From: Escherichia coli phage KS_S14
DNA: 64,000 nucleotides
Reading direction: 5' to 3' (one strand)
Sequence record: LC788706.1
The position numbers and the translations under genes are program-made. Positions 3,925 through 31,078 of the stretch are shown piece after piece; within the stretch, counting starts at the first letter, position 1; the number at the start of each line of letters is the position of its first letter. The notes beneath the pieces are model-generated. The model was not told the DNA's origin and searched no databases. It saw only the letters and a list, made by a program, of their open reading frames with translations.

Positions 3925-5682
3925 ATGGGTTTTTTCGCTGGAAAGTATAGCGATGGTAAGACCGTACTATCTTTAAATACTGAATCTGGTGGTGACATTA
4001 ATCGTCACTATAGTCCAAGTAATAATAGTATTTTTCATAGTGATATGCCATTTGTTCTAGTTGATGGTACTTATGAGGCAGGATTAGGTGATGCCGGGAA
4101 TGGGTTTTTCGTATGTCAGATGCCTCCTGATATAGTAAATATTAAATCTAATGATCCTGGTAGAGTTATACTAACTGCTATTGAGATTAATGGTACTCAC
4201 AGAGCTTTTCTTAATGGTACTCAGAGTAAAGTTGGTCAAACTATAGTTGCCACTCAAGCAGACCCCTTTAGATCTTTTGCTAGTGTTTCTCAAACCAGTG
4301 GATTTGCATTTGGTAATAGTCTAGCATCTGGAACTTATAATTATAACCCATCGATAGGGCACGAAGAATCTATTTCTAGGAGTGGTACAGGTGGTACTAC
4401 GTTACATAGTACCTACCATGGGATAGTTAGGCCTGGTGCGGGAGCTCCTGTAGGTGTTACTGTTGCAGAAGCCTTTGCACAGTTAGGTTTTCCTACTAAT
4501 AGTAGCACAGTACCTGTAGATGGGAATAACCCGTATTATTGGGATCCTGGATGGATGTCGCCTCTAGGAGCAGCACATAGAGGGCATGATTGGTTTTATG
4601 TTTGCAACTCTAATATACGTGGATACGGTGGGGTTAGACAAGGGCTCCCAGGTAATGTAAATACTATGTACCACGACGGTGGGAACAGATTTGTTTGTAG
4701 GGGATCTACTACTAATTTAGCTAACCAGTCGGGTGACTCTACAATACTACAGGATTGGTATAATATAACCCCTACTAAGGTTATTTGGTATGTTCTTAAT
4801 TTAAGGTACTCTAATGGTGGAATGAGTATTTCAGGCAACCCCTTTACTGGTTCTGATATTCTTATATCTCCTTCTAATTTCATAATTAAAGGGGTAAGTC
4901 TCCCTAATACCGGGTATAAATTTATAAATCAGAATGCTTTTGGTAACCTAGGTTACCGTCCTGATATGGAGTATATAGGAAATAACGCAGCGTATACCGG
5001 GGTTTTTGGGGATACCACGGCAAGGTGTGAACTTGTAGGGTCTAGTAATGGAGGATTATGGTCTCCTGTAGACTATGGTGGAGCTAAATCCCAAATTAGC
5101 ATTTACAAATTCGGAGCTGGTAAGCAATGGTATGTAAACTCTAGGGATAATACTATCGGTAATGAACACGGGGTTGTTTGGGGACCATCAGCAGTTCCAT
5201 TACGACTTTTTGGTGGAAATGTAGGTAGCTCTTACATGGGGGATGATATTACTCCCAGCTACCCGGGAACAGGGGATAGATACGTTGGTTTATCAACTAT
5301 TGGGCTAGGTATACCGGGTGGCAATGCTACAGTAATTCTTACCACTGAAGTTATATCAGGTAACCTTAACTGTGCAGGTGTTCCTGCTAATACATGGAAT
5401 AACGGTGTGTTTCAAGTGCAAGGAAGAAGAGCATATAGCTATAGTAATGGAGATGCAATATTCCACCAGATTTTAACATTACCAGTAGGGTATTTAGTAC
5501 CTTTTCATACTACATCTGCTTTTAGATACACACCTAACAATGCCCTAAGTAGAAATAGTTTTATATACACTGCTAAAAATCTGGGGAATGGAAATGTAGA
5601 GTTAGGGGTAGTTATGCACGTAAGTTTAGGTAGTGCAGTTTTCCTACCGAGATTAAGAGTAACAGTTCAACGCCTTACCTAA
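3925..5682 (+). CDS. Receptor-binding tail protein (pb5/Oad-like)
   Basis: 585 aa, rich in Gly/Asn/Ser/Thr/Tyr; divergently adjacent to llp, the T5 oad-llp arrangement. Confidence 0.55.
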
Positions 5683-5692
5683 AGGAGGAAAT

Positions 5693-6175
5693 ATGGCAAA
5701 TGATGTATTAGTACCAGATCTTATGTCCCCTGAAGGGATGGATGTAATTGAAGCATATTTACAGTGTGGCAGCGATGTGCCTTCTGCCGCACGTAGTCTT
5801 GGGATGTCCGAAATTGCTTTTCGAGATATTATGAATCGTAGTGAAGTTAAGAACTACTTAAATGATATTTTTATGGAGAGTGGTTTCCGTAACAGAGATC
5901 GTTTATTTGGTGTTCTGGATGAAGTTATCAAGCGTAAACTAGAGGAACTAGAAGAAACTGGCATGGGTTCTGACCAAGATATTATGGATATTCTCTGGAA
6001 AGCACATAAAATGAAAATGGAAGAAATGAAAATGATGGTAGAACTGGAGAAAGTGAAGGCAGCAGCCCGTACTCCAGCTAACCAGACCAACATCCAGAAT
6101 AATATTATTGCTGGAGCTGGGGATCAAAACTACATGGACTTAATTACTTCCCTAGCTACTGGAGGTAAGAAGTAA
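5693..6175 (+). CDS. Putative terminase small subunit
   Basis: 160 aa with an HTH-like segment ([17 protein letters not shown]); stop overlaps the start of the large terminase. Confidence 0.5.
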
Positions 6176-7491
6176 TGGAAGTATCAAGACCTTACGTTAA
6201 TACAGTAGATGTTATTGATTTCGGAATAGATAAACGTTTCTTTCGTCTACCTGTTTCGGGAATACTAGCACAAGAAGGTATTACACCTAATGGTCCTCAA
6301 ATAGCGATTATTAATGCTCTAGAGGATCCTAGACATCGTTTTGTAACGGCGTGTGTATCACGCCGTGTAGGTAAATCCTTCATCGCATATACTCTTGGGT
6401 TCCTAAAATTGCTGGAACCTAATGTGAAGGTGTTAGTAGTTGCTCCTAACTATTCACTGGCCAACATCGGATGGTCTCAGATTCGTGGTCTTATTAAAAA
6501 ATATGGCCTACAAACTGAACGTGAGAACGCTAAAGATAAGGAAATTGAGTTAGCTAATGGTTCTCTGTTTAAACTAGCTTCCGCTGCTCAGGCTGACTCC
6601 GCAGTTGGACGTTCATATGATTTTATCATCTTTGACGAGGCGGCAATTTCCGATGTGGGTGGTGATGCCTTCAGGGTTCAGCTGCGTCCTACTCTAGATA
6701 AACCTAATTCTAAGGCTCTATTTATTTCCACACCTCGTGGAGGTAACTGGTTTAAAGAGTTTTACGCCTACGGATTTGATGATACGTTGCCTAACTGGGT
6801 ATCTATTCATGGTACATATCGTGATAACCCTCGTGCTGACCTGAATGATATAGAAGAAGCACGTCGTACGGTTAGTAAAAACTACTTCCGCCAGGAATAT
6901 GAAGCTGACTTCTCTGTATTTGAAGGTCAGATTTTTGATACTTTCAATGCTATTGACCATGTTAAAGACCTTAAGGGTATGCGTCATTTCTTTAAAGATG
7001 ATGAAGCATTCGAAACGTTGCTTGGTATCGACGTTGGTTATCGTGATCCTACAGCAGTTCTTACTATTAAGTATCATTACGATACGGATACTTACTATGT
7101 ATTAGAAGAGTATCAGCAGGCGGAGAAAACTACAGCTCAGCATGCTGCTTACATTCAGCACTGTATAGATCGTTATAAAGTTGATCGTATTTTTGTTGAC
7201 TCCGCGGCAGCTCAGTTCCGTCAAGACTTAGCTTATGAGCATGAAATTGCATCAGCTCCAGCTAAAAAATCTGTCCTAGATGGCCTAGCATGCCTGCAAG
7301 CACTGTTCCAACAGGGTAAGATTATTGTAGATGCCTCATGCTCCTCCTTAATTCATGCACTGCAGAACTATAAGTGGGACTTCCAAGAAGGTGAAGAGAA
7401 ATTATCACGTGAAAAACCACGTCATGATGCTAATTCTCACCTTTGTGATGCGCTGCGCTATGGAATTTACTCTATTTCCCGTGGTAAATAA
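6175..7491 (+). CDS. Terminase large subunit
   Basis: 438 aa; Walker A-like (VSRRVGKSF) and Walker B-like (FIIFDEAA) motifs in the N-terminal ATPase, nuclease-type acidic residues C-terminally; located immediately before the portal. Confidence 0.85.
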   Translation: MEVSRPYVNTVDVIDFGIDKRFFRLPVSGILAQEGITPNGPQIAIINALEDPRHRFVTACVSRRVGKSFIAYTLGFLKLLEPNVKVLVVAPNYSLANIGWSQIRGLIKKYGLQTERENAKDKEIELANGSLFKLASAAQADSAVGRSYDFIIFDEAAISDVGGDAFRVQLRPTLDKPNSKALFISTPRGGNWFKEFYAYGFDDTLPNWVSIHGTYRDNPRADLNDIEEARRTVSKNYFRQEYEADFSVFEGQIFDTFNAIDHVKDLKGMRHFFKDDEAFETLLGIDVGYRDPTAVLTIKYHYDTDTYYVLEEYQQAEKTTAQHAAYIQHCIDRYKVDRIFVDSAAAQFRQDLAYEHEIASAPAKKSVLDGLACLQALFQQGKIIVDASCSSLIHALQNYKWDFQEGEEKLSREKPRHDANSHLCDALRYGIYSISRGK

Positions 7492-17573: not shown

Positions 17574-20500
17574 ATGACTGATAAGCTAATACGAGAATTA
17601 CTAATAGACGTTAAACAGAAGGGGGCAACTCGTACTGCAAAGTCTATTGAAAACGTATCTGATGCGTTGGAAAATGCTGCTGCTGCTTCCGAACTGACAA
17701 ATGAGCAGTTAGGTAAAATGCCCAAAACTCTTTATTCCATTGAGAGGGCAGCAGACAGAGCAGCAAAAAGTCTTACTAAAATGCAAGCTAGTAGGGGTAT
17801 GGCTGGTATCACCAAATCTATTAATGATATTGGTGATAAACTAGATTACCTAGCTATCCAACTTATTGAAGTAACAGATAAACTAGAAATTGGATTCGAT
17901 GGAGTTTCTAGATCTGTTAAAACAATGGGCAATGATGTTGCAGCTGCAACAGAGAAAGTTCAAGATAGGTTATACGATACTAATAGAGTTTTAGGCGGTA
18001 CAACCAGAGGTTTTAATGATACTGCTGGTGCCGCTGGTAGAGCGTCTAGAGCCATTGGTAATACTTCTGGTTCAGCACGTGGTGCAACTCGTGATTTTGC
18101 AGCAATGGCTAAGATAGGTGGTAGTTTACCTATTATGTACGCAGCTCTTGCTTCCAACATCTTCGTTTTGCAATCAGCATTTGAACAACTTAAACTAGGT
18201 GATCAGCTAAATCGTTTAGAAAAATTTGGTGTTATAGTAGGTACTCAGACAGGTACTCCTGTTCAGACCCTTGCTAGATCACTACAAGAAGCTGCTGGAT
18301 ATGCTATTTCTTTTGAGGAAGCAATGAGACAGGCATCTTCAGCATCAGCTTATGGGTTTGATGCCGAACAACTTAATAAATTTGGTTTAGTAGCTCGTCG
18401 TGCGGCTGCTGTTCTTGGCGTTGATATGACTGATGCACTTAACCGTGTAATTAAGGGCGTATCTAAACAAGAAATCGAACTTCTGGATGAACTTGGTGTC
18501 ACCATTCGTCTTAATGACGCATACGCTGATTATGTTAAACAGTTAAATGCTGCAAACACAGGTATAACATATAATGTTAATAGTCTTACCACTTTCCAGA
18601 AGCAACAAGCATACGCTAATGCGGTAATTGCTGAATCTACTAAGCGTTTTGGCTACCTAGATGAAGTACTACGTGCAACTCCATGGGAGCAATTTGCTGC
18701 TAATGCAGATGCTGCACTAAGAAAAATACAACAAGCTGCTGCTAAGTATTTAGGGCCAGTAATTGATGCTATCAACACAGTATTTTATACATCTCAGGCT
18801 TCTATATCTGCTGAGGCAGCTAGGGCCCAAGAAAAAACTAATAGACAGATAGACCCTACCAACGTTGGTGCTGTTGCTTTAAGTTTAGCTGCATCTGAAG
18901 AAGGCTATAATAAAGCTCTAGATATGTATAAGGAATCTCTTGATAAGCGTAATAAGCTAAAATCTGAGTTCGATAAACGAATGGAACAAGCAGATTTCTA
19001 TACAAAACTAGCTATACGTCAAGTTGGTGAAGGTATTCCTATTGGTCTTGCAGCAGCAGGTGCCTCGGAGGCCAATAAGCAATTTGTAGCAGAAACTGCA
19101 GCTATGGGTCTACAAGTAACTAGACTTGGTAAGGAAGTAGAGGATTCTACAGAGAACCTCAATGCTTGGAAATCAGCGTATCAAGCTGCCGGGGCTGCTG
19201 CTGCAAAGGCTAGTCCAGAGTTTCAGAAGCAAATTAATCTACAGAGAGATACTACTGATCCTGGTGCTGTATATGATTTTAACTCTACTGTATTAAAAGG
19301 ACTAACTGAGCAGCAGAAAGCATACAATCAGACTAAGAAAACTGCTAGTGACTTAGCTAATGATATACAGAACGTTGCTCAGAATACAGATACTGCTGCT
19401 AAAACTAGTGCTACTTTAGCAGATGCTATAAAAAACATAGAATCTCTATCTCTAGGTACTGGTAAGAGTGCTGATGAATACGTTAAAAATCTTAACCTAG
19501 GCTATAATACTCTGTCTGAAATGAAAACTGCGTCTCAGGCCTTATCTGAGTACGTTAAACTAACTGGTAATGAGACTAAGAACCAGTTAGCAGTTCAACA
19601 GAAGATAGCTGACGTATACAACCAAACTAAAGATAAAGAAAAAGCACAGGAAGCTGGTAGGCGTTTAGAACTCCAACAGTTAGAAGAGCAAGAAGCTGCT
19701 TTACGCCGTGTACTTCAAACTAATCAGGGAAATAAAGCTGTTGAGAAAGAAATTGAAAAAATTCAGCTGGAGAAACTTAAACTTACTAATCAGGGTATGG
19801 AGGCTCAGAAGAAGGTTAAGGATTATACAGATAAAATCCTGGGTGTAGATCGTGAGATAGCTCTCTTAAATAACCGTACTATGACAGATACTCAGTATCG
19901 TCTAGCACAGTTAAATCTTGAATTGACCATTGAAAAGGAAAAGTACGAATGGTATACAAAACAAGCTGATAAACAGAAAGAGGCTGAACAGTCTAGACGT
20001 GCTCAAGCCCAAATTGAACGTGAAATCTGGAAATTCCGCCAAGATCAGATTGCTTCAATGGCTGCTGGTAGAGAGGAAGAACAGCAAAGACAATTTACTG
20101 CTAAACCACTAATGGGAAATGCGGAGCGCTTACAGGAACAGCTAAAATTATATGAAGACTTAAAGCAGAAAACATTAGGTAATGCTGCGGCACAAGCGGA
20201 GTATAATAAAAAGATAGCTGAAACTAGGGCACAACTAGCAGGTTTAAGGGCACAGAGAAATGCGGAGATGCAAGCTTCTGTTGGATCTTCTTTAGGTGCT
20301 GTGTATACTCCTACAACTGGACTATCTGGAGAAGATAAAGATTTTGCTGATATGGGAAATAGAATGGCTTCTTATGATCAGGCAATTTCTAAACTATCTG
20401 AGTTAAATTCCGAAGCAACTGCTGTAGCTCAAAGCATGGGTAATTTAACCAATGCTATGATTCAGTTCTCTATGGGGTCTTTAGACACTACTTCCACGAT

Positions 20501-26887: not shown

Positions 26888-27310
26888 ATGAGTACTGAAA
26901 ATAGAGTTATAGACTTAGTAATAGATGAAAAAGTACCTTATGGTCTAATGATGCAATTCTTAGATGTTGATGATAGTACTTATCCACCTACAAATACCCC
27001 TGTTAACTTAACAGGGTATTCCCTAAGGGGTACTATAAAGGCGGGGCTTGATGAGAACGCGGAAACTTTGGCATCTTTTACTACTAAAATTATTGATGCT
27101 GCTCAAGGTGCTATAGCTATAAGTTTACCTGTAGAGGCGGTAGATAATATTGGTGAAAAAGCTACCAAAGAGAGAGATAAGTATAACCCTCGCCAACGTT
27201 TTGCAGGATACTATGATATAATTATGACACGAGATGTCATAGGATCAGCTATTAGCTCTTTTCGTATAATGGAGGGTAAAGTATTTATCAGTGATGGGGT
27301 AACTAGATAA
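26888..27310 (+). CDS. Small tail protein (p132-like collar protein)
   Basis: 140 aa; position between pb4 and the fibre genes. Confidence 0.45.
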
Positions 27311-28983
27311 TGGCAATAACTACTAAGATTATTGTACAACAAATATTAAATATTGATGATACTAAAGCTACTGCTAGTAAATTTCCTAGATACACAGTAA
27401 CTCTTGGAAATTCTATTAGCTCTATTACTGCTAATGAGTTAGTATCTTCTATAGAGGCTGCTGCTAAATCTGCTGCGGCTGCAAAAGATTCTGAAATAGC
27501 TGCTAAAACCTCAGAACTTAATGCTAAGAACTCTGAACAGAAAGCTGCTATTTCTGCTACTGAAGCAGGAAAACAAGCTACTAATGCTGCTAATAGTGCT
27601 AATACTGCTAAAACTGAAGCCGATCGTTCAAAAACTGAGGCTGATAGATCAGAAGCTGCTGCTAATTCTACCCCCGACATTCAACCTCTTCCAGATGTAT
27701 GGATACCGTTTAACGATTCTCTAGATATGATCACCGGCTTTGCGCCAGGCTATAAAAAAATAACAGTCGGTGATGAGGAAATAACACTGCCCAGTGACAA
27801 GATTGTTAGCTTTACACGTGCATCAACTGCGACATATATTAATAAATCAGGTGTATTAACTGTTGCGGGGATTGATGAACCTAGATTTGAAAAGGATGGT
27901 TTGCTCATTGAGGGGCAAAGAACTAACTATCATCTTAACTCACTTACGCCATCTAAGTGGGGAGCTACAACAAGTGTAACTATAACAGAAAGTGGTGTTG
28001 ATGAGTTTGGATTTACTTATGGGCGGTTTCAAATAAAGGACGAAAAAATTGGGACAAATACGGCAATGAATATCGCTGCGATTTCAGGAGGAAGAGGTGT
28101 CGATGTTACCGGAACTGAAAAGTATGTTACAACATCATGTCGTGTAAAAAGCGATAGTGCTAATATACAATGTCGTATAAGATTTGAAAGATATGACGGA
28201 TCCGCATATTTTTATCTAGCAGATGCATATCTTAATATAACAGATATGTCCATTAGAAAAACGGGAGTAGGGGCTGCAAGAATAACCGCCCGAGCGGAGA
28301 AAGAATCTAATGGATGGATTTATTTCGAGGTTACATATCAATCTGAAGCTATTGATAATATGGTTGGCTCTCAGATCCAAATTGCTCCACCTGTTTCACC
28401 TGGCACTTATTCTGGTGGAGAGTACTTACAGGTAGCTACCCCTCAAGTTGAAGGCGGGGCGTGCGCTTCATCGTTTATTATTACAGAAGCGACTCCAGTA
28501 ACACGGGCAAGCGATATGGTCACATTACCAATAAAAAACAACCTTTACAATTTGCCGTTTACAGTACTTGTGGAAGCTCATAAAAACTGGAGTATAACGC
28601 CAAATGCAGCGCCACGTGTTTTTGATACCAGCGGTCATCAAACCGGAGCGGCTATTATTCTTGCTTTCGGATCTGCCGAAGGCGATAATGATGGTTTCCC
28701 TTATTGCGATATAGGTAAATCAAACAGAAGGGTTTACGAGAATGCAAAACTAAAAAAGATGATCATGGGAATGAGAGTAAAGAGTGATTACAATACTTGC
28801 TGTGTAAGTAATGCCAGAATATCAAGCGAAACAAAAACGGAATGGAGATACATACAATCAACGGCTACTATAAGGATTGGAGGACAAACAACTACGGGCG
28901 GACGTCATCTTTTCGGGCACGTTAGAAACTTTAGAATCTGGCATAAGGAACTAACTGATAGACAAATGAAGGAGTATGTATGA
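27310..28983 (+). CDS. Tail fibre protein: N-terminal Ala/Lys/Ser-rich fibre-shaft repeats, C-terminal lectin-like (LamG-type?) domain
   Basis: N-terminal AAKSAAAAKDSEIAAKTSELNAKNSEQKAA... repeats resemble side-tail-fibre shafts; C-terminus ends ...HVRNFRIWHKELTDRQM, reminiscent of concanavalin-like lectin domains. Confidence 0.5.
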   Translation: MAITTKIIVQQILNIDDTKATASKFPRYTVTLGNSISSITANELVSSIEAAAKSAAAAKDSEIAAKTSELNAKNSEQKAAISATEAGKQATNAANSANTAKTEADRSKTEADRSEAAANSTPDIQPLPDVWIPFNDSLDMITGFAPGYKKITVGDEEITLPSDKIVSFTRASTATYINKSGVLTVAGIDEPRFEKDGLLIEGQRTNYHLNSLTPSKWGATTSVTITESGVDEFGFTYGRFQIKDEKIGTNTAMNIAAISGGRGVDVTGTEKYVTTSCRVKSDSANIQCRIRFERYDGSAYFYLADAYLNITDMSIRKTGVGAARITARAEKESNGWIYFEVTYQSEAIDNMVGSQIQIAPPVSPGTYSGGEYLQVATPQVEGGACASSFIITEATPVTRASDMVTLPIKNNLYNLPFTVLVEAHKNWSITPNAAPRVFDTSGHQTGAAIILAFGSAEGDNDGFPYCDIGKSNRRVYENAKLKKMIMGMRVKSDYNTCCVSNARISSETKTEWRYIQSTATIRIGGQTTTGGRHLFGHVRNFRIWHKELTDRQMKEYV

Positions 28984-29258
28984 GAGATATAATCCTAAAA
29001 TTCACGGATAAATCAGCATATAAAGATTTTCTCTTAAAAATAGAGTGGGATACTAATGAAAATTTGCAAAACCAAATAATGCTTGACGAAATTGGATATA
29101 CTTATACTGAAATCTCTCCGCTAGGTGATGAGGAACCTAGATGCATCCGTAATGAAGGGTATTATATTAATGTAAGGATTCTTGATGAATCCTTTACTTA
29201 CGAATCCTTCGAGCCTTTTATAGTTCAGCTAGAACAGCCTCTTAGAGTATGGGCATAA
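28980..29258 (+). CDS. Hypothetical protein between the two fibre genes
   Basis: 92 aa; stop/start overlap with upstream fibre gene. Confidence 0.4.
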   Translation: MRDIILKFTDKSAYKDFLLKIEWDTNENLQNQIMLDEIGYTYTEISPLGDEEPRCIRNEGYYINVRILDESFTYESFEPFIVQLEQPLRVWA

Positions 29259-29267
29259 GGTTTTATA

Positions 29268-31036
29268 ATGGTAACTAAAACAGTAATTCCTACGGATATT
29301 ACAAAACTTAAAAATGAGTCACTTAATAAAAATAATAACCTGAGTGACTTAGCAGACCGTGCAGCAGCATGGCTAAATGTGCGTCCTATTGGATCTACCC
29401 CTCTTGCTGGAGATCCTGTTAGTGACTATGATGCCGCAACTAAGCGTTGGGTGGAGAACAAACTTAATACTGGCACAGTAGGACCCACAATGAATGGTGT
29501 TATGAACTACGGGGTGGGGGATTTTCATCTTCGAGATAGCCGTGCGTATATTCAACCTTATGAGGTAGTTTCTGATGGGCAGCTTCTTAACAGGGCTGAC
29601 TGGCCTGAACTTTGGGCGTATGCACAAATGGTTGGAGCTATAGATGATTCAGTTTGGTTAGCAGATGTAGGACAACGTGGGAAATATTCTACGGGAGATG
29701 GTACCACTACTTTCCGCGTCCCAGATCGTAATGGTGTGCAACTAAATTCAATCAAAGGGTTATTCGCTCGTGGTGACGGTGGGGGGATGCTGGTCAAGCT
29801 GGTTCAATATCAGAAGCTGCAGCACCCAATATTACTGGTAGTTTTCCTGGCGCTATTGCTGGTGCATATGAAGAAGCGCTTAATAGATATTCATCTAGAT
29901 TTGGTCTTATTGGGGCGATTGGTGGTGAAAACGGCTTAGGTGCCGCTCCTGGAGGTGCATCTAAATCATTCGCCGTAGTTAATCCTGATAACCAATACGG
30001 ATTTAGTTTTGATGCAAACTTAGCGGACCCTGTTTATGGGCGTTATGGAATAAAAGGTACTATTATTCCAAACAGCTTTATAGGTGTCTGGGTAATCCGT
30101 GCTTCTGGTGGGTTCGTGGCTGCAAAGACTTCGTGGAGTGTTATTAGTGGTGATGCTGTCAAACCTAATACTGGTACTACTGTTTATGGCGGGAGTGTAC
30201 TATCTGAGTATAAAGTAGGTACTAGTAGTGAGGCTGTAAGTACACTACGAGCTAAAGCTACTATTGGTGGCACCTACTCTACTGAACTACTAATAGACAA
30301 TAAATCTACCGGTAAATCGAATTCCGCCCAGCTTGTAGATAATGGGGATTTTGTAACGGATCGTTTTAAAGCTAGATTAGTTACTGGCATGGCGTGGTCT
30401 CAGACTGGCTGGGTACAAGGTACTCTTTCTCAGAACGAGGTCAATATAGGTAGTACATTTAACTTTAATAGTATATTGAGCGGTTCCCAGTCTTCTTCCG
30501 CAGGGTATAAGACATCTGCACATTTTGGATTAATTCATAATGACTTAGGCTCATTTGCAGATTCTTGTTGGCAGGTAGCGGGAGATGATGATAATAAATT
30601 TGGTGTGCGTTTAAAAATTCAGCCGAATAATAATAGTATTTATTTTTATTCTTGGTGGCCAGGTGCTTCAGCAACCTATACTTTGCAATTAAATGCTGTA
30701 TCTGATTCTCGCTTAAAGCATGATATTAAGGCTATAGACGCAACTAAGTCCATCGAGGTATTAAAAGGATTAGAATTCCAATCCTTTGTATATAATAACG
30801 ATGAAAAATCTCGTGTCCGACGTGGGGTTATTGCTCAGCAAGTAGAGACTATAGAACCACTTTATGTAAAAACTAGAAAATTTTATAATGATGACGGAAT
30901 AGAGCAGGAGCAAAAGGAATTAGATACAACTCCAATGCTTCTTGACACTATGCATGTTGTGCAAGATCTTATTAAACGGATTGAAGATCTAGAGAAAGAG
31001 CTTGAGCAATTAAAGGTACAATTAGTATCACAATAA
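29268..31036 (+). CDS. Tail fibre protein with phage-tail-collar domain and C-terminal intramolecular-chaperone (S74-like) domain; reading frame interrupted at a G6 run
   Basis: N-terminal part (29268..29939) carries a collar-type motif (RADWPELWAYAQ...TTFRVPDRNG); C-terminal part (30116..31036, other frame) ends in a chaperone-like segment (SDSRLKHDIKAID...). The second frame is open from 29777, and a 1-nt shift at GGGGGG (29781-29786) joins both parts into about 589 aa. Confidence 0.6.
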
Positions 31037-31037
31037 A

Positions 31038-31078
31038 AGAAAACCCCAGTGGACAAAATCCACTGGGGTTTATTATTT
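31038..31078. terminator. Bidirectional rho-independent terminator between the convergent fibre and dut genes
   Basis: CCCCAGTGG-loop-CCACTGGGG hairpin flanked by an A-run upstream and a T-run downstream. Confidence 0.6.

Follow-up and report, generated by a model that had tools for sequence, protein, structure and literature searches.

Which type of lateral tail fibre (LTF) does Escherichia coli phage KS_S14 encode between positions 26,888 and 31,036 of its sequence record LC788706.1, and can the phage, as deposited, still make the whole of it? We analyzed a 64,000-nucleotide (nt) stretch of this record (the window; all positions refer to it), in which a first, sequence-only reading had described a protein of 557 amino acids (aa) with a fibre shaft and a lectin-like C-terminus, a 92-aa open reading frame (ORF), and a second fibre gene of about 589 aa with collar and self-cleaving chaperone domains. 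That reading compared the arrangement with the branched two-protein fibres of some T5-like phages. The explanation that we prefer, and that we regard, taken as a whole, as likely to be correct, is that KS_S14 is a Tequintavirus and that the four-gene region is an LTF operon of the type found in phages vB_Eco_mar004NP2 and IrisVonRoten. This operon would have been altered at two sites. A 239-aa in-frame deletion between short direct repeats would have removed most of the stalk of the proximal fibre, and the contraction from G7 to G6 of a hypermutable tract, situated where the distal fibre passes from its conserved stem to its variable receptor-binding region, would have broken the distal frame.

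The operon consists of four tightly packed genes on the plus strand, at 26888–27310, 27310–28983, and 28980–29258, followed by the fibre gene from 29268. The stop codon of ltfC overlaps the start codon of the 557-aa gene (TAATG), the stop codon of the 557-aa gene overlaps the start codon of the 92-aa gene (ATGA), and the gap between the 92-aa gene and the distal fibre gene is only 9 nt. The 557-aa (27310–28983) and 92-aa (28980–29258) ORFs were found exactly as the sequence-only reading had given them. The GenBank proteins BEU75850–75853 of phage KS_S14 were exact matches to the proteins of the module, and in that record the fourth gene appears as a pair of hypothetical proteins, one of 223 aa and the other of 306 aa. 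No relevant paper on phage KS_S14 was found in the literature. The nearest genomes in the searched phage collection were those of Tequintavirus vB_Eco_mar004NP2 (hereafter mar004NP2), the Salmonella phages PMBT29 and SPLA5b, and IrisVonRoten. The nucleotide identity of the window to mar004NP2 was 93.7% over positions 1–20014 and 99.0–99.6% over 20280–46214, and the fibre module was 99.9% identical apart from two indels. These two indels, the stalk deletion and the loss from the G run, are the sole uncompensated indels against mar004NP2 across approximately 25 kb of 99.0–99.6% identity.

The region from 29268 to 31036 comprises 1769 nt, a number not divisible by 3, and the distal fibre gene is not the single ORF of about 589 aa that the sequence-only reading had reported. 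The 5′ part of the gene (29268..29939; KSS14E_0930) encodes 173 native residues and 50 out-of-frame ones, 223 aa in total. The remainder of the gene is carried by the −1 frame (29777..31036), which is open for 419 codons and contains the variable receptor-binding region and the chaperone; this part was deposited as the 306-aa KSS14E_0940 starting at a GTG codon at 30116. The two frames overlap across a G run (overlap 29777–29939), and the run itself (29781..29786) has six G residues in the window versus seven in mar004NP2 and PMBT29. Restoring one G gave an uninterrupted product of 589 aa, and residues 3–583 of this frame-restored protein were 44% identical to residues 511–1073 of LtfA from phage DT57C (E 1e-143). 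An intact distal ORF of approximately 575–590 aa ending in an S74 chaperone is not present in the window, where the frame is broken at G6. The self-cleaving chaperone itself was located at 30701..30859 as a Peptidase_S74 domain (Pfam PF13884, E 1.3e-12, aa 196–248 of the 306-aa ORF). The proposed collar domain was not borne out, its match (E 0.0067, 16.8 bits) falling below the cut-off of 24 bits. We take it as probable that G6 is a true mutation and not a base-calling error of the KS_S14 record. As deposited, KS_S14 is most likely unable to produce the distal fibre, since neither the receptor-binding domains nor the chaperone fall within the 173 native residues, and its lateral fibres would most likely be short and end in the lectin-like head only. 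Thus the two receptor-recognition heads implied by the sequence-only reading, or more than two, hold for relatives with an intact gene, and for KS_S14 as deposited only the lectin-like head is predicted.

To place the change in the G run, homopolymers of at least 5 nt between 24809 and 33000 (35 including the G tract) were compared across up to 13 loci; numbers with the prefix L denote individual loci throughout. Among the other 34 homopolymers, 32 never varied, and the two exceptions were confined to the record OR896837. The G tract was G6 and out of frame in the window, L015, L018, and L019; G7 and in frame in mar004NP2, PMBT29, phC11, an IMG/VR contig, a human-gut contig, and L021; G8 and out of frame in L016/L017, L022, and L023; and G10 and in frame in SPLA5b. 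It was G13 and in frame in OR896837, which is an unreliable record, and in JLBYU40, Lindwurm, and WP85 it was interrupted by a synonymous A (GGGGGAG) and in frame. On a near-identical background (3 differences or fewer in 900 nt) we found G6 in the window, L018, and L019, G7 in mar004NP2 and PMBT29, G8 in L022 and L023, and G10 in SPLA5b. On divergent backgrounds, G6 appeared again in L015 and G8 again in L016/L017. The exact 223-aa truncated product was also assembled from SRR31518524 and ERR11474195, which are unrelated runs from other archives. These results show that the G tract mutates far faster than its surroundings, the variation being that seen between genomes. G or C runs of 6 are not unusual per se in the window, since 3 were observed versus approximately 5.7 expected. 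The informative tract variants came from exact-protein look-ups of truncated products; when the tract was sought in viral, metagenome, and IMG collections, each scan gave a single locus, both of them G7.

Two further records showed anomalies at simple repeats. OR896837.1 (L004), a second record named mar004NP2, has G13 in the tract, A10 where A7 is found elsewhere, and G4 where G5 is found elsewhere; its proximal fibre has 685 aa and its distal gene is split into three coding sequences. This record may be an error-prone assembly, and we treated it as unreliable and not as standalone evidence. In phage NG_A1 (L028, LC788705; the accession is in the same series as that of KS_S14 and possibly from the same submitter), a 2-nt (AG)n expansion at 2501–2925 truncates ltfC to 111 aa, and a T5/T6 homopolymer frameshift at 5264–6993 splits the distal fibre gene.

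The second change, which the sequence-only reading had overlooked, is in the proximal fibre gene. The orthologues of the 557-aa protein in mar004NP2, PMBT29, SPLA5b, and IrisVonRoten have 796 aa, and the protein in the window lacks 717 nt in frame (239 aa, residues 83–321) relative to this form. The two BLAST pieces of the window against mar004NP2 overlapped by 15 nt, which places the deletion junction (27544..27558) at an imperfect 15-nt direct repeat, GCTGCTAWTTCTGCT, with just 7 perfectly matching bases. The deleted DNA consists of 21-nt tandem arrays; because these arrays encode heptads such as SETNAKA, the deleted segment is a coiled-coil stalk. Most of the heptad coiled coil is thereby removed, and an estimated length of approximately 35 nm would be lost if the segment is alpha-helical (0.15 nm per residue). 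The same form was found in an independent Logan contig (L014, ERR11478452), which aligned without gaps at 94.6% nucleotide identity and likewise encodes 557 aa with the same junction register, and L018 carries the short-stalk form with one extra heptad (+7 aa). Among 28 T5-like homologues, the part preceding the conserved PLPDVWIPF motif ranged from 125 to 371 aa, with several steps of 7 or 14 aa. The short stalk is a naturally recurring allele present in independent samples. Since the flanks in the window are identical to those of the long mar004NP2 allele, the deletion is most simply a recent and recurrent event at the same microhomology. In L014 the 557-aa gene precedes the 92-aa gene, after which comes a distal fibre gene that is intact and encodes 576 aa; a short stalk is thus compatible with an intact distal gene, and hence the docking site for the distal fibre lies outside residues 83–321.

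The proximal fibre protein (27310..28983; KSS14E_0910), which in the window is the short-stalk allele, matched PHROG 5481/24369 at aa 1–120 and PHROG 1419 at aa 82–557. Homology searches, which could have spoken against a role in the fibre, supported it. Residues 1–188 were 55% identical to residues 1–202 of DT57C LtfA, the profile of the protein matched the LtfA chain of PDB 8hqz (E 1e-11), and the 796-aa orthologue of mar004NP2 is annotated as a structural protein confirmed by mass spectrometry (MS). The N-terminal anchor (aa 1–39, 27310..27426) is homologous to the N-termini of LtfA and pb1, and by this homology it would insert into the LtfC ring; strands were predicted at residues 28–39 by AlphaFold2 (AF2). 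In DT57C, the N-terminus of LtfA threads into the LtfC ring, with beta-strand segments followed by a trimeric helix from T40 (PMC10713586). The remaining stalk (aa 40–118, 27427..27663), where the long allele has its 21-nt heptad arrays, is rich in Ala, Ser, Thr, and Lys and was modelled as a helix over residues 41–118, in agreement with the shaft that the sequence-only reading had described.

The lectin-like C-terminal part was also upheld. A beta-sandwich domain (aa 199–400, 27904..28509), related to the head-spike fibre of RcGTA, the gene transfer agent of Rhodobacter capsulatus, matched the NCBIfam model NF048003 (GTA_spike_fiber; E 8.8e-16, exceeding the curated cut-off) and PDB 6tb9 (E 1e-7). 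Foldseek searches with the model of the protein gave phage tail-fibre chains, CBM4/CBM30 modules, and legume lectins. The C-terminal segment (aa 505–552, 28822..28965) resembles ConA/LamG domains, with a match to Pfam Laminin_G_3 below the cut-off (E 0.0021) and low AF2 confidence; the motif RHLFGHVRNFRIWHK within this segment is near-invariant among 48 homologues. From these matches, the term lectin-like for the C-terminal part of the proximal fibre seems reasonable. The AF2 monomer had a mean pLDDT (predicted local distance difference test) score of 56.7, and only residues 211–380 (pLDDT 64–92, mostly 76–92) and the helix were used. A Pfam scan gave no S74 match in the 557-aa protein.

The 92-aa protein (28980..29258; KSS14E_0920; PHROG 1361) is encoded by the conserved middle gene of the cassette. 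The AF2 model (pLDDT 80) has a small alpha/beta domain followed by an invariant, unmodelled tail of residues 68–92; the protein received no family assignment, and a structure search with the model gave no significant fold match. A deep profile of the protein matched several proteins of 1300–1800 aa that are rich in PKD domains, with 3–8 weak repeated matches each, over residues ~4–70. These are probably spurious repeat matches.

The cassette was also found outside T5-like phages, in Dhillonvirus-like phages of ~51 kb, in which the three proteins have 659, 92, and 224 aa, and in E. coli lambdoid prophages, in which the cassette follows gpJ and lom directly and the proteins have 792, 93, and 234 aa. 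The loci concerned are L024 (4001–6945) and L026 (4001–7678), and the prophage cassette has an additional hydrophobic ORF of 97 aa downstream. The heads encoded by the Dhillonvirus-like and prophage cassettes were 64–67% identical to that of the window, and the small proteins were 46% and 36% identical. The third proteins share with the distal fibre of the window only the chaperone and the first ~17 residues (MATVTVIPSDITKLK and MATSTVIPGDITTLK versus MVTKTVIPTDITKLK). The first 17 aa of the distal protein were 70% identical to those in the Dhillonvirus-like cassette, and the motif was recognisable in the prophage cassette. Among the 17 T5-like rows listed, which include proteins with unrelated receptor-binding regions, the first 30 aa of the distal protein were identical in 16, and phC11 differed at one residue. 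The conserved N-terminal motif MVTKTVIPTDITKLKNE (29268..29318) is a candidate docking peptide, and its conservation suggests that it may dock the distal trimer onto the head, the 92-aa protein, or both.

A different architecture was observed in L016/L017 (Logan SRR23801862 and SRR23801920; 3191–5921), which encode a single-chain fibre with an LtfA-like anchor and stalk fused to the distal module from residue 27. This locus has neither the lectin head nor the 92-aa gene; the poly-G tract is present there too, as an out-of-frame G8.

The assembly that these data suggest for an intact fibre is as follows. The LtfC collar would hold the trimeric proximal fibre by its pb1/LtfA-like N-terminus, and the proximal fibre would consist of a heptad coiled-coil stalk and a C-terminal beta-sandwich, lectin-like head of ~430 aa. 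The translationally coupled 92-aa protein would come next and the distal fibre last. The distal fibre would dock by its invariant N-terminal ~17–30 aa and would present the variable receptor-binding domains and the self-cleaving S74 chaperone at its C-terminus.

We compared this explanation with four others. If both peculiarities were sequencing or assembly artefacts, the stalk would have been lost by repeat collapse and one G by a homopolymer miscall, and the true genome would encode a proximal fibre of 796 aa together with an unbroken distal fibre of 589 aa. In favour of this are the repetitive nature of the stalk DNA and the well-known proneness of homopolymers to error; the fibre genes of NG_A1, from the same accession series, likewise contain frameshifts at repeats, and the G13, the other homopolymer anomalies, and the three-way-split distal gene of OR896837 indicate that some records are unreliable at such sites. 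However, the imperfect junction repeat is too short to collapse in normal assembly, the 557-aa form was assembled independently in L014 and in its +7-aa variant in L018, no further homopolymer indel occurs in the ~25 kb of near-identical sequence, and the truncated product recurs exactly in the two unrelated runs. We consider an artefact at both sites unlikely. A branched LTF of the DT57C type, in which LtfA carries LtfB as a side branch through an interface like that of phiEco32 gp14/gp15, is more improbable still. It would account for two fibre proteins downstream of ltfC and for the LtfA-like N-terminus of the first, the second protein is 57% identical to LtfB residues 206–528, and the authors of the mar004NP2 genome named this gene an ltfB orthologue. 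On the other hand, the first protein has no match to LtfA past residue ~202 and no S74 chaperone, the second lacks the N-terminal 205 residues of LtfB including the 45-aa dock and instead matches the distal half of LtfA over its full length, and the 92-aa gene between the fibre genes is absent from DT57C. Least probable of all is that programmed frameshifting or transcriptional slippage bypasses the break and yields a full-length distal fibre from the G6 allele. The two frames do overlap over the G run, and homopolymers can support slippage, but the run contains no X XXY YYZ heptamer, the base before it being T (T GGG GGG A), the downstream RNA was not more stable than shuffled sequences (z = +0.55), and in the nearest relatives, which have G7 or GGGGGAG, the protein is read from one frame, so that recoding is not a conserved feature. 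Programmed −1 frameshifting was rejected on these three grounds.

The fourth alternative overlaps with our explanation and differs from it only on whether the mutability is adaptive. The OFF alleles may be ordinary loss-of-function mutations, fixed on rough laboratory hosts because there lateral fibres are not needed or carry a cost, with the G run as the easiest target and not an evolved switch; we give this somewhat less than an even chance. The LTFs of DT57C are required only on O-antigen-producing hosts (PMC10713586, PMC4728585), NG_A1 has two independent fibre-gene frameshifts at other simple repeats, and a synonymous A interrupts the tract in three phages, all of which agree with simple loss. 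Less readily accommodated are the four tract lengths on a near-identical background, which include the in-frame +3 (G10; the +6 of G13 occurs only in the unreliable OR896837), and the recurrence of OFF lengths on divergent backgrounds. The adaptive reading, that the poly-G tract at the boundary of stem and receptor domain is a genuine contingency locus in T5-like phages, is offered tentatively, with the balance of probability lying against it. Several points weigh against our explanation. The OFF alleles were gathered via look-ups of truncated products, and hence give no frequency estimate; the in-frame alleles are far commoner, the 589-aa product (P0137) being indexed in 40 blocks of the collection. 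The G6 of the KS_S14 record could be a homopolymer miscall, and the repeat frameshifts of NG_A1 are compatible both with a true loss of the lateral fibres in culture and with a sequencing error, be it method-specific or shared. For the proximal fibre, the AF2 model is of low quality except at residues 211–380, and the evidence that suggests the docking mode is conservation.

If the tract is a contingency locus, replication slippage would continually generate a mixture of progeny, those with G7 or G10 bearing the distal dual-domain fibre and those with G6 or G8 lacking it, and some virions would display the lectin-like proximal head only. This would amount to bet-hedging on O-antigen-diverse hosts, atop the repeat-driven variation in stalk length. 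Apart from this reading, changes at simple-sequence sites, namely the G tract and the 21-nt heptad arrays, repeatedly alter the composition and length of the fibre in phages that are otherwise identical. Annotation and host-range prediction would wrongly assign KS_S14 a distal fibre that it probably cannot make, and the host range of T5-like phage-therapy stocks may drift on propagation; the tract is a candidate for phase variation in a coliphage. The conservation of the cassette in Tequintavirus, Dhillonvirus-like phages, and lambdoid prophages with the 17-aa motif points to a portable docking interface, which could serve for tip swapping.

In regards to the surroundings of the fibre genes, ltfC (26888..27310) encodes the 140-aa collar protein that anchors the lateral fibres (Pfam LtfC PF23926, E 8.4e-15; 84% identity to DT57C LtfC). 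A bidirectional terminator hairpin (31041..31071, both strands), with a stem of 13–14 bp followed by T-runs on each strand, lies between the fibre operon and the convergent dUTPase gene. Consensus matches for internal promoters were no commoner in the operon than in shuffled sequence. Between the blocks of 93.7% and 99.0–99.6% identity to mar004NP2, ~265 nt near 20014–20280 were left unjoined by the aligner, and the jump in identity suggests a recombination boundary upstream of the tail genes. ARAGORN detected no tRNA genes within the window (1–64000), which places the tRNA cluster typical of T5-like phages outside it.

The layout of an LtfC collar, a lectin-headed proximal fibre, a 92-aa protein, and an S74-ended distal fibre is already published for mar004NP2 (2019) and for BASEL phage Bas32 (2025). 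The points that are new here are modest: the G tract is hypermutable, stalk-length alleles recur, and the cassette, together with its candidate docking motif, is found across lineages. Michniewski et al. (2019, PMC6563131) described in mar004NP2 an ltfB orthologue and two genes upstream, and noted that one of these two probably completes the fibre. Its genes gp053, gp052, and gp051 correspond to the module of the window at 99.9% identity, and gp053 is the gene annotated as MS-detected in virions. Unlike the window, mar004NP2 has the long allele of 796 aa, and its G7 keeps the distal gene in frame for a product of 589 aa. In IrisVonRoten (Bas32), the proximal fibre Gp22 was modelled with a protruding galectin-like domain and the distal fibre Gp24 as 'T-shaped', with Gp12-like and T5-like receptor-binding domains and an intramolecular chaperone; K-12 in which the O16 antigen had been restored was shown to be infected by this phage (Humolli et al. 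2025, PMC11990801). Bas32 and the window share the order of ltfC, proximal fibre (796 aa in Bas32), 92-aa gene, and S74-chaperone distal fibre. We found in the window ltfC upstream, a pb1/LtfA-like anchor with a coiled-coil stalk, a lectin/galectin-like head, and the 92-aa gene, as in the cassettes of Bas32 and mar004NP2. The proximal fibre of the window was 95% identical to Gp22 over the shared part, the comparison of the lectin-like head gave 96% identity to Gp22, and the first 30 aa of the distal proteins were identical. In contrast to Bas32, the window lacks 239 aa of stalk, has another receptor-binding cassette and a frameshifted distal gene, and carries the poly-G tract where Bas32 has GGTGGTCAA.

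The branched LTF of DT57C is defined by an internal phiEco32-gp14-like region of LtfA and an N-terminal gp15-like dock of 45 aa in LtfB (PMC4728585). The LtfC collar, the anchor, the helical stalk, and the distal receptor region with S74 of DT57C and DT571/2 (Golomidova et al. 2016; Ayala et al. 2023) are homologous to those of the window, whereas the gp14-like branch region, the gp15-like dock, and the chaperone of the first protein are missing from the window, which has the 92-aa gene in addition. The blastp alignments of the long allele to LtfA end by residue 205 (1–202 and 59–205), short of the gp14-like region (LtfA aa 223–471), which is the proposed branch point. Alignment of the distal protein to LtfB begins only at LtfB residue 206, the N-termini being unrelated, and the S74 domain is not found in both fibre proteins as it is in the DT57C type. 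Docking of the DT57C type was rejected by this pairwise alignment, and the distal protein of the window corresponds to the C-terminal half of DT57C LtfA, not to LtfB. The sequence-only reading was right in favouring a multi-gene fibre module over a single pb1-like gene, and its comparison with branched DT57C-type fibres did not stand. T5 pb1, an L-shaped single fibre of 1396 aa, shares with the module its N-terminal ~120 aa (PHROG 24369) and the C-terminal S74 domain at the tip. T5 has one polypeptide, whereas in the window the anchor and stalk are encoded separately from the tip and the first protein has a lectin head; a fused single-chain variant exists in L016/L017. The head spike fibre Rcc01080 of RcGTA (PDB 6tb9) shows homology detectable by sequence with the beta-sandwich at aa 199–400, which lies on a capsid spike there and on a tail-fibre head here.

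We found no paper linking Tequintavirus, homopolymers, and fibre frameshifts, and no report of poly-G phase variation for T5-like phages. The nearest known parallel to the tract is in Campylobacter phages, for which hypermutable poly-G tracts in receptor-binding protein genes have been described (Sorensen et al. 2021, Cell Rep, doi 10.1016/j.celrep.2021.109214, as cited in PMC10579305). In both cases a G homopolymer lies inside a receptor-binding gene and a change in its length flips the frame ON or OFF. The tract described here is shorter (6–13, most often 7), it belongs to an enterobacterial siphovirus, and its variation is known between genomes only. If it is a contingency locus, poly-G phase variation of receptor-binding proteins, so far from Campylobacter phages, would extend to enterobacterial siphoviruses.

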